From positions 3,596,001-3,660,000 of the forward strand of contig OZ024753.1 in the NCBI GenBank assembly GCA_964016885.1: DNA of 64,000 nucleotides, given 5' to 3'. The stretch's first letter is position 1. Every line of letters begins with the position of its first letter. Origin of the DNA: Eledone cirrhosa. Lineage: Eukaryota. Below are positions 3,319 to 35,081 of this stretch, piece after piece. The notes below the pieces were generated by a model. It saw only the letters and a list, made by a program, of their open reading frames with translations, had not been told where the DNA came from and did not search any database. A program made the translations under genes and the position numbers.

Positions 3319-3370
3319 TAATAAGAAAATGTGACGTAGTTTCAGATGTTAAAGTCCGTTACTGATTATA

Positions 3371-3444
3371 CCATGATACATATTTCAATGACTACAGTGG
3401 CTACACGATTCCGTGTACCCAGTGCGGTGACCTCATCAATATGG
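3371..3444 (-). ncRNA. Degenerate type I HHR motif
   Basis: Minus strand ccat(a)-TTGATGA-ggtcaccgcactgg...ccactgtagtcatt-GAAA-tatgta-TC-atgg; helix II start resembles family B. Confidence 0.5.
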
Positions 3445-3959
3445 CTCTATATTTCAACAAACATATCTGGTGCTCTATTTCCTAGTCTATTTTTCTGTTA
3501 ACACTCGTCTGCCTATATGTCTACCTGTGTCACCATGTGTCTCTATTATTTATATATGCACATTTGTAACTGTAACTCATATGTTTATAGTAAGCTTTGA
3601 TGCCAACCTGACTCTCTCTCTCACTCGTTTTGTATCTATCTATCATACATATATAAATATACATGCATACAGACACACGCAGCGTAAGCATAACATATTT
3701 CCATTTTTGTTTGATAGATGTCATTTTGTTACTGAAAATTACTACTAGTTCCTTTAGAAGGGAAAATGTAAATCATGTTCAGAAAATCTGTTATCTTGAA
3801 ATTTGTAATTTAAAACAATGAAAAAAGTATACTTTCAAATAATATCCGAGATATGGTATTTTATAATCAGGGAAAGATATTATACTCACCCAGTTTATAT
3901 AATTATATATTATATTATGTTTGTATAATATACAATCTAATGTATAATGCATGTATTCC

Positions 3960-31457: not shown

Positions 31458-31805
31458 TAACATTGAAATAATGGTGAGCCACAGATAGAGCACAAAATCT
31501 GATGATAGAATTAAAGGAAGGTAACAACTAATTCACATTAGTTCAGAAATAAAAAACGGAGGAAACAAAATATGACCAGAAAGAAAAGAAGGCAGAGAGA
31601 AGAAGACACATTTGTAATTGAGAAGGTTACAGAATATGTGACGAAAGAACATTGTATATAATAACTAATAATAGCGCTGAAGTGAAAATCAAACAATACT
31701 TGGAAATTTTGCCAATATTTCCAATGAAAACATCTCCAAATATCATAATATTTTTCAACACACGATTTCACATAAAGAATGTTGCAAAACAAATACATAC
31801 ACATA

Positions 31806-32461: not shown

Positions 32462-32505
<44 letters not shown>

Positions 32506-32647
32506 TGTGAGAAAAACCACAGACCCTCCATCTCAACTCACCTTTTGAAAAGCAGAAGAACTGCGAAACCGGTAAAGGAACCAAATAAATATATACATTT
32601 TAAAAAAAGATAAGACTTCAGTTGCATTTTCGATTTCATCTCTTTTT

Positions 32648-32688
<41 letters not shown>

Positions 32689-32757
32689 TATGAAGAGAGA
32701 AGAAACATTTAGATATAATTAGTAATAAAATGTATCATACCTAAACTGCTCCTAAAT

Positions 32758-32845
32758 TCCTCGACTACGTACTTTCGTGGCATAAACAAAAACAATATAT
32801 CAAAGATATAGAGTCCCTGCGAGGTCTGCCGACTTATCAAGAGGA
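32758..32845 (-). ncRNA. Type I HHR (U3-A8 variant), inverted copy
   Basis: Reverse complement of the 33900-33989 motif. Confidence 0.7.
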
Positions 32846-33306
32846 TACCTCATTTTACTAGTCTCAAGAACGCGTCTACACGACGTGAGAAAGAATCCCA
32901 AAAGGCGGAGGGGGAGATAGTCACGCGATATAACGGTCGAGAAACAGAGCTAAGCCTCCTATAACCTCGAAGAAAATACCACGGAGGCGGAGGGGGTATT
33001 TATATCGAGGCCGCAGAAGAGTTGGTGAAGAAGGCGAGAAGTATGGGTAATGGAAGCCTTCCAGCTGTCCCCACAGATCAAAGATTGCTCGACCAGAGGG
33101 AGTTATTAACAATATATTTAGAAACACACAGATACATGCGGACACACACATATATACATGAATGCATCCGTGGTATTTTCTTCGAGGTTATAGGAGGCTT
33201 AGCTCTGTTTCTCGACCGTTATATCGCGTGACTATCTCCCCCTCCGCCTTTTGGGATTCTTTCTCACGTCGTGTAGACGCGTTCTTGAGACTAGTAAAAT
33301 GAGGTA

Positions 33307-33396
33307 TCCTCTTGATAAGTCGGCAGACCTCGCAGGGACTCTATATCTTTATGATATATTGTTTTTCTTTATGCCACGAAACTACGTAGTCGAGGA
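33307..33396 (+). ncRNA. Type I HHR, U3-A8 variant, palindromic helix III
   Basis: tcctc-TTGATAA-gt(c)ggca...tgccac-GAA-ACTACGTAGT-C-gagga; helix I TCCTC/GAGGA; predicted GUC cleavage after 33391. Confidence 0.8.
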
Positions 33397-33899
33397 ATTT
33401 AGGAGCAGTTTAGGTATGATACATTTTATTACTAATTATATCTAAATGTTTCTTCTCGCTTCATAATGTATTTCTAACTCTGATACTGGTTCAGTCTAGT
33501 TCAACTGAATTGGTCTGTCCCAGTCATTCATTGAGCAACATCGGTGAAGTTGGCACCCTTAACTCGCAGTTGGGTGCGGATGCATTCATGTATATATGTG
33601 TGTGTCCGCATGTATCTGTGTGTTTCTAAATATATTGTTAATAACTCCCTCTGGTCGAGCAATCTTTGAACTGTGGGGACAGCTGGAAGGCTTCCATTAC
33701 CCATACTTCTCGCCTTCTTCACCACCTTCTGCGGCCTCGATATAAATACCCCCTCCGCCTCCGTGGTATTTTCTTCGAGGTTATAGGAGGCTTAGCTCTG
33801 TTTCTCGACCGTTATATCGCGTGACTATCTCCCCCTCCGCCTTTTGGGATTCTTTCTCACGTCGTGTAGACGCGTTCTTGAGACTAGTAAAATGAGGTA

Positions 33900-33989
33900 T
33901 CCTCTTGATAAGTCGGCAGACCTCGCAGGGACTCTATATCTTTATGATATATTGTTTTTGTTTATGCCACGAAAGTACGTAGTCGAGGA
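33900..33989 (+). ncRNA. Type I HHR, U3-A8 variant, second tandem copy
   Basis: As 33307-33396, but helix III reads AGTACGTAGT (one mismatch). Confidence 0.7.
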
Positions 33990-34219
33990 ATTTAGGAGCA
34001 GTTTAGGTATGATACATTTTATTACTAATTATATCTAAATGTTTCTTCTCTCTTCATAATATATTTCTAACTCTGATACTGGTTCAGTCTAGTTCAACTG
34101 AATTGGTCTGTCCCAGTCATTCATTGAGCAACATCGGTGAAGTTGGCACCCTTAACTCGCAGTTGGGTGCGGATGCATTCATGTATATATGTGTGTGTCC
34201 GCATGTATCTGTGTGTTTC

Positions 34220-34283
<64 letters not shown>

Positions 34284-35038: not shown

Positions 35039-35081
35039 GTCACTGAAGAGGTCACAGAGTGTGTGACGAAAGAACTATGAC
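35039..35081 (+). ncRNA. Minimal type I HHR (43 nt)
   Basis: gtca-CTGAAGA-g-gtcaca-gagtg-tgtgac-GAAA-gaac-TA-tgac, inside TA-flanked insert 34985-35225; decayed homologue at ~31614-31655. Confidence 0.8.

Follow-up and report, generated by a model that had tools for sequence, protein, structure and literature searches.

In this family, the two arms of an insertion that meet head to head almost always end at two different fixed sites of the repeat unit, one arm at site A and the other at site B. This A+B rule at head-to-head joints is the new point of our analysis, and its value lies in the rule taken together with arms of several units that carry a single haplotype. The element was found in the window, by which we mean the whole 64,000-nucleotide stretch of DNA that was analysed, and it is almost certainly a retrozyme, or non-autonomous Penelope-like element (PLE). 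It is a new retrozyme family, of a kind and with a U3-A8 hammerhead core that are already known and ordinary. We consider it fairly probable that the insertion is a copy of a non-LTR retrozyme and that the protein of a Neptune-type PLE likely moved it in trans, through two-site priming from a likely circular RNA. The sequence-only reading had proposed a young, retrozyme-like element at this place, and this was borne out, U3-A8 being conserved; it did not notice the link to PLEs, the preference for TA tracts or the rule of A and B ends, which is the informative part.

The ~1.8 direct units and the ~480-bp inverted copy joined at TCCG, which had been read from the letters, were confirmed, both arms and their overlap being present. 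The features of the locus are the following.

32683..33170, minus strand: inverted arm, 488 bp, unit 414-593 plus 1-308
32683: 3' end of the inverted arm, at unit site A (~308), adjoining (TA)n
33167..34228, plus strand: direct arm, 1,062 bp, 1.79 units
34228: 3' end of the direct arm, at unit site B (~472-473), adjoining (TA)n
33167..33170, no strand: arm overlap TCCG, the head-to-head joint of both arms
32650..32685, no strand: left (TA)n target tract
34223..34280, no strand: right (TA)n target tract
33392..33463, plus strand: predicted hairpin 5' of site A and close to it, unit 229-300, with a second copy at 33985-34056
34156..34222, plus strand: predicted hairpin 5' of site B and close to it, unit 400-466
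33741..33748, plus strand: TATA box TATAAATA, of doubtful promoter role
32503..32655, plus strand: separate neighbouring insertion, a 3' piece of a Neptune-type PLE pLTR

The repeats of the direct arm are spaced by 593 nt and are 98.9% identical across 472 bp. The unit length of 593 nt given earlier is thus right for this locus, but it reflects a local 2-bp deletion, the units of the family being mostly 591 or 595 bp. The box that had been pointed out at 33741 is present but broken in 54 of 183 segments, so it is not conserved and was rejected as a promoter. Neither an RT, nor another long ORF, nor an LTR was found in the unit, whose longest ATG frame has 76 aa; an RT plus GIY-YIG ORF is likewise absent from it, and when the window was searched by tblastn with the PLE protein, nothing matched. 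The earlier statement that there is no ORF holds for long frames, but both young subfamilies have an ATG frame of 75-76 aa (unit 433-663, window 33596 onward). This frame was rejected as a gene since it is not conserved, being frameshifted in the window and absent from the one older copy examined. The window has other motifs that resemble minimal hammerheads and whose core is the ordinary C3-G8 one, at 35039 (plus strand), 43973 (minus strand) and ~31593-31650 (plus strand), all near TA tracts, and the one at ~31593 is a decayed relative of that at 35039.

Three copies of the ribozyme lie in the insertion.

33307..33396, plus strand: type I hammerhead 1, with a U3-A8 core, a long helix II and the palindrome of the family in helix III, predicted cut after 33391
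33900..33989, plus strand: type I hammerhead 2, with the rare G in helix III, cleavage predicted after 33984
32758..32845, minus strand: type I hammerhead 3, in the inverted arm, G variant as in hammerhead 2, predicted cut after 32763

All three have helix I TCCTC/GAGGA, the core UUGAUAA with its U3-A8 pair, and a helix II with G10.1-C11.1. Across 182 copies from 77 loci, U3 was kept in every one and A8 in 181, and the pair was kept in 39/39 and 27/27 copies of older subfamilies; this agrees with the earlier view that U3-A8 is not a product of decay. The Rfam scan returned 52 matches at E<=5, hammerhead families being absent among them, so standard models miss the U3-A8 motif, as had been anticipated. 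Helix III is ACUACGUAGU in the copy at 33307 and the other two copies carry the G, just as previously described. The comparison of C and G across copies that had been suggested was carried out, and it showed that the perfect palindrome is the state of the family, found in 180 of the 182 copies (the two exceptions, with G, belong to this window) and in 6,916 matches genome-wide vs 12 for the G form. The helix-III G is a defect of this locus. No source locus was found for the G variant, the remaining 10 matches being lone copies.

By comparison with the older subfamilies, changes in the core were few, 1/45 vs 91/540 elsewhere and 3/45 vs 131/534 (p about 0.005), and nearly all the changes in stems leave the pairing of the hammerhead strand intact, most of them being one-sided changes to G-U. 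Since helices I and III are nearly invariant, no two-sided covariation was found in them. In the fold predictions, the MFE structure of a typical dimer was the active dimeric hammerhead (-62.5 vs 2 x -24.4 kcal/mol), which supports, for the typical copy, the earlier idea that tandem hammerheads pair through the palindrome. The circular monomer was predicted to be strongly self-paired, with an MFE of -184.2 and z = -6.2 against 40 shuffles. When 800 nt were folded, the probability of the intermolecular helix III was 0.98 in the typical dimer vs ~0.1 in the dimer of the window (33250-34050); active-form helix I was absent from these equilibrium folds in the typical dimer and the window dimer alike. 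The same idea had made this very locus a source of 593-nt monomers, a role for which it is predicted to be badly suited: because the G breaks the 15.2-16.2 pair at one dimer site and helix III falls to ~0.1, the locus is probably a poor monomer source. The lack of helix I in these folds was counted against our model, as was the behaviour of Xenopus retrozyme dimers, 8/9 of which did not cleave in vitro (10.64898/2026.07.22.740005).

The family is a several-thousand-copy, non-coding, dispersed repeat. In the 3.0-Gb assembly that contains the window, exact 26-nt patterns gave 7,758 matches for unit 274-299, 6,916 for the sequence spanning the cut and 5,866 for the 5' half of the ribozyme, and controls gave 0. 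The loci fetched, to which the L numbers refer, were all 57 listed in the first 62 Mb of C1 and 49 more, picked for their similarity, their length or their having the G variant. Of the 57 consecutive C1 loci, 55 had (TA)n on both sides and the other 2 on one side only. Every tandem unit holds a type I hammerhead, and the ends are TA-joined sites, not LTRs. Two older subfamilies, ~80% identical, retain the hammerhead core. The unit is present in the sequencing runs of 3 studies, and was also seen in runs X4 and X6, labelled organisms B and C; among the matches listed there were no RNA runs containing it.

The 3' ends of the arms fall at two sites of the unit, ~308 (A) or ~473 (B), each of them an AU-rich stretch after a predicted hairpin, and the spacing from A to B, which is the tail, is 165 nt. 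In the hairpin of site B, altered pairs remain paired in 7/8 and 11/12 cases in the older subfamilies. Taking the 62 head-to-head joints together, 53 (at 52 loci) were A+B, one was A/A, none was B/B, and 8 were complex or could not be assigned. The consecutive set had 30 joints, of which 26, from 25 distinct loci, were A+B and none joined two ends of the same kind, for which a fair coin gives 0.5^25, or ~3e-8, for 25 loci. Single arms (n=51) ended 25 times at A, 21 at B and 5 elsewhere, and genome-wide the plus strand had 1,375 A-ended and 1,112 B-ended copies, the counts on the reverse strand being inflated by overlapping matches. Scored by eye, with duplicates dropped, the older subfamily had 13 A+B loci, 2 of them with shortened B ends, and 2 others; the oldest had 14 A+B, 1 B/B and 1 other; and an unrelated 320-bp tandem family with U3-A8 had A+B in 19/20. 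These three samples were drawn with queries favouring one end type, so that a single kind of exception is visible in each. When all families were pooled, there were ~118 A+B loci vs 2 clear exceptions, L007 (A/A) and L231 (B/B). In L007, the sole A/A joint, the two arms are not identical, having one variant site between them; (TA)n is missing on the right, and the locus is flanked by a duplication of ~12 bp.

The 320-bp family (L238-L262; L130 ~3330-3640, minus strand) is a second family of tandem retrozymes, with U3-A8, a 12-nt palindromic helix III and a tail of ~30 nt; the A+B rule holds in it too. Its similarity to the unit was not above that of shuffles. Other families of hammerheads with a long helix II were seen at L077 1-700 (minus strand), L090 ~258 (plus strand) and L220 ~747 (plus strand), of which L077 appears tandem.

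Both arms of one insertion agree at 740/745 polymorphic sites vs 70.5% when permuted (max 80%), and the lengths of the arms are uncorrelated (rho -0.13). At the 62 joints, the arms overlap by at least 2 bases in 30 and by 0-1 base in 12, and are separated by a gap in 20, some of the gaps being alignment edges. At the joint of L069 (4706-4764) there are ~five copies of an 11-nt word derived from the unit, which suggests RT slippage at the junction. In 47 loci with at least three-fold internal cover, 84 variants were in all units (7 of them private to the locus), 115 in a single unit and 10 in part of the units. This all-or-one pattern and the 13-unit arrays, almost uniform in L088, are what copying by rolling round a monomer would give. 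Variants of the partial class, which include the G of the window, confined to the first-made unit of both arms, misfit a pure monomer circle; these 10 suggest that a minority of cases involved a multimer as template, fold-back or conversion at a later time. The 5' ends of the arms cluster directly 3' of the cut (14/124 in unit 229-250, p 2e-4) and equally at unit 394-415 (14/124), both windows having been picked post hoc, so structure-induced stops explain the cluster at the cut as well as cleavage does. A linear cleaved monomer was rejected as the main template, the matches passing from 7,758 to 6,916 and 5,866 without a cliff at the cut.

We regard twin priming on one RNA as probable, and we lean towards the circle as its main template. 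It is possible to conceive the same priming by a PLE on an uncleaved linear multimer transcript, the hammerhead being largely an idle passenger. The copy number that does not drop at the cut site and the 10 partial variants, the window G among them, are in line with such a template, as are the hammerhead mutants that, in the available text of PMC11167929, had no effect on the insertion of an anole PLE in vitro. However, the 7 locus-private variants shared by all units require a monomer bottleneck, the 13-unit arrays are almost uniform, the hammerhead core is conserved, and joints between ends of the same kind are rare even though A and B would each be present several times on a multimer; we find it unlikely that this was the template. 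Single priming followed by fold-back or self-priming, in which the second arm is copied from the first cDNA, agrees with the palindromic joints of L066, L073 and L063 and with the geometry and common G of the window, and self-priming has been proposed for PLE inversions (PMC3846280, in the part available). Nevertheless, the arms cannot nest in 14/52 loci, the 38 in which nesting is feasible equal the 37 expected for independent lengths, and the stop of the second arm at the other site is left unexplained. As a general route it is refuted by the 14 loci that cannot nest and seems quite improbable, although a minority of loci may have arisen in this way.

Copying at the DNA level, without RNA or RT, could have come about by circular DNA, by repair of breaks at TA tracts or by two insertions meeting. 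TA tracts are fragile, recombination can enlarge tandem arrays, and both end sites are TA-like. Against this, on the hammerhead strand the arms have their 3' ends facing outwards, G-U pairs are retained by substitutions on that strand only, the arms of an insertion have one haplotype, and the A+B rule is also found in an element that encodes an RT, which makes this route very improbable. The sequence-only reading had itself named a single-copy unit or an assembly chimera as what would overturn it. The contigs of four runs, none of which crosses the whole stretch, would suit such an artefact, but it is scarcely credible in view of the thousands of copies, spread over many contigs, that are built alike and yet have differing joints, and of the unit being found in the runs of the 3 studies.

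Matches to GIY-YIG are plentiful in the genome, and a young family of Neptune type was found, having an RT, a CxxxxCxxC linker and, at its C terminus, GIY-YIG; the motif used for Neptune was an RT, a CX2-5CxxC linker and GIY-YIG at the C terminus, as given in the available text of PMC8557442. Judged by domains and linker alone, the candidate partner would be classed as a Neptune, and it may be a Nematis. Its copy in L143 has an open stretch of 938 residues and is broken upstream of that stretch. The pLTR carries a U3-A8 hammerhead, with 6,512 matches; the targets are TA, and there are two 3' ends (A' and B') 68 nt apart. Inverted copies of this element, scored by eye, were A'+B' in 20/22 and other in 2. 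Since the same rule holds in an element with RT and GIY-YIG, it was counted toward twin priming of PLE type. The piece at 32503..32655 has its own U3-A8 hammerhead at about 32541 and ends at site A', in the TA tract that it has in common with the retrozyme. Many of the short pLTR pieces begin near one base, ~70 nt upstream of the cut site, and they are often arranged as tiny head-to-head pairs. The distance from the cut to A is ~80 nt in both the retrozyme unit and this PLE. The unit aligned to the candidate pLTR with a score of 83 vs 93 ± 7 for shuffled sequences, and in 40 PLE loci no similarity to the unit was found among the matches listed. The genome also has several further families of PLEs in which this linker is found. 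That this particular family is the partner is a tentative assignment, slightly short of an even chance.

In the two-site priming that we propose, cleavage of dimers would release monomers, which would be ligated to circles. A Penelope-like (Neptune-type) RT-endonuclease would cut (TA)n, and both DNA ends would prime reverse transcription at the fixed sites A and B of one RNA, likely circular. Each DNA end would take one AU-rich site behind a hairpin and, as a monomer has one A and one B, the second end would get the site left over. The two cDNAs would run for independent lengths, up to ~7 units, and would be joined head to head, often via microhomology. Reading through the ribozyme site is observed, insertions crossing the cut position. 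We give even chances to a broader proposal, by which Penelope-type retrotransposition would be obligate twin priming, a dimer of the PLE protein holding one RNA at two fixed starts, each start serving one end of a double-strand cut; on a retrozyme circle, two RTs would then roll at once around that one circle.

The origin of PLE tails, tandems and inversions, and the way in which retrozyme circles re-enter the genome, are open questions in the available texts of PMC8557442, PMC11167929 and PMC7229834. The family yields a sharp prediction, namely that each event has one A end and one B end from one RNA, and the 165-nt spacing of the sites, with the marked haplotypes, makes the model easily testable in the existing PLE in vitro assay. 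If obligate twin priming is true, a single step would account for the tail of PLEs, for the inversion with its arms head to head and for the tandems. The family would in that case provide the first record, in a genome, of a circular RNA made by a ribozyme undergoing two-ended rolling-circle reverse transcription.

In L1 twin priming, both ends of the target prime cDNAs that meet head to head by microhomology, the second primer landing at variable internal sites and the arms having no overlap; in our family neither site varies, and the arms have sequence in common. Like our element, the MRC1-type Chlamys of Chlamydomonas are non-autonomous PLEs with multicopy head-to-tail insertions, but, in the available text of PMC8557442, Chlamys elements have a 3' end similar to that of their partner and no canonical hammerheads, whereas here no similarity to a partner was found in the one pLTR recovered. 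The U3-A8 pair is not new, since PLE hammerheads with it, and their folding as dimers, were already described for Schistosoma Cercyon (PMC4209133, in the part available). The unit has the U3-A8, the G10.1-C11.1 pair and the palindromic helix III that define minimal hammerheads of PLEs, and it shares a short helix I with those of Cercyon type; unlike the minimal ones as described there, it is a tandem non-coding element, is highly uniform rather than variable, and has a helix II domain of ~60 nt.

Retrozyme circles and the hypothesis of their mobilisation by PLEs are described by Cervera and De la Pena 2020 (PMC7229834) and Li et al. 2026 (10.64898/2026.07.22.740005). As far as the available texts go, metazoan non-LTR retrozymes have, as here, tandem units that are non-coding and contain one type I hammerhead apiece, a GC content under 50%, a self-paired monomer, co-occurrence with PLEs and a proposed reverse transcription of circles. 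The unit of 595 bp exceeds the 150-450 bp of PMC7229834 and is within the 51-972 bp of 10.64898/2026.07.22.740005. The U3-A8 core, the long helix II, the 10-nt palindrome and the strict (TA)n targets set our family apart from them, and the same texts make no mention of head-to-head arms with two fixed ends. No account of twin priming in PLEs or of inverted retrozymes was found in the open-access texts covered, so an earlier statement may exist; the papers examined for an earlier description did not mention hammerheads.

PLEs are described with an inverted pLTR and an optional tail on one end (PMC3846280, PMC8557442), and in the anole Poseidon PAc PLE two internal RT starts bound the tail, both strands are cut and a dimer is predicted (PMC11167929). 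In the available text of these three papers the tail is called optional, and the use of both starts by one event is unstated. The start sites of the anole PLE show no strand preference in vitro (PMC11167929), which was counted against the twin-priming model. The anatomy of PLE insertions is found here in the partial tandem, the inverted 5' copy, the tail on one end and the microsatellite target. By comparison with EN+ Penelope-like elements, as these sources present them, our family shares the partial tandems, the inverted 5'-truncated copy, the one-end tail, the microsatellite targets and the two RT starts, and differs in that the ORF is absent, the tail has 165 nt (theirs 30-40) and both arms may be several units long.
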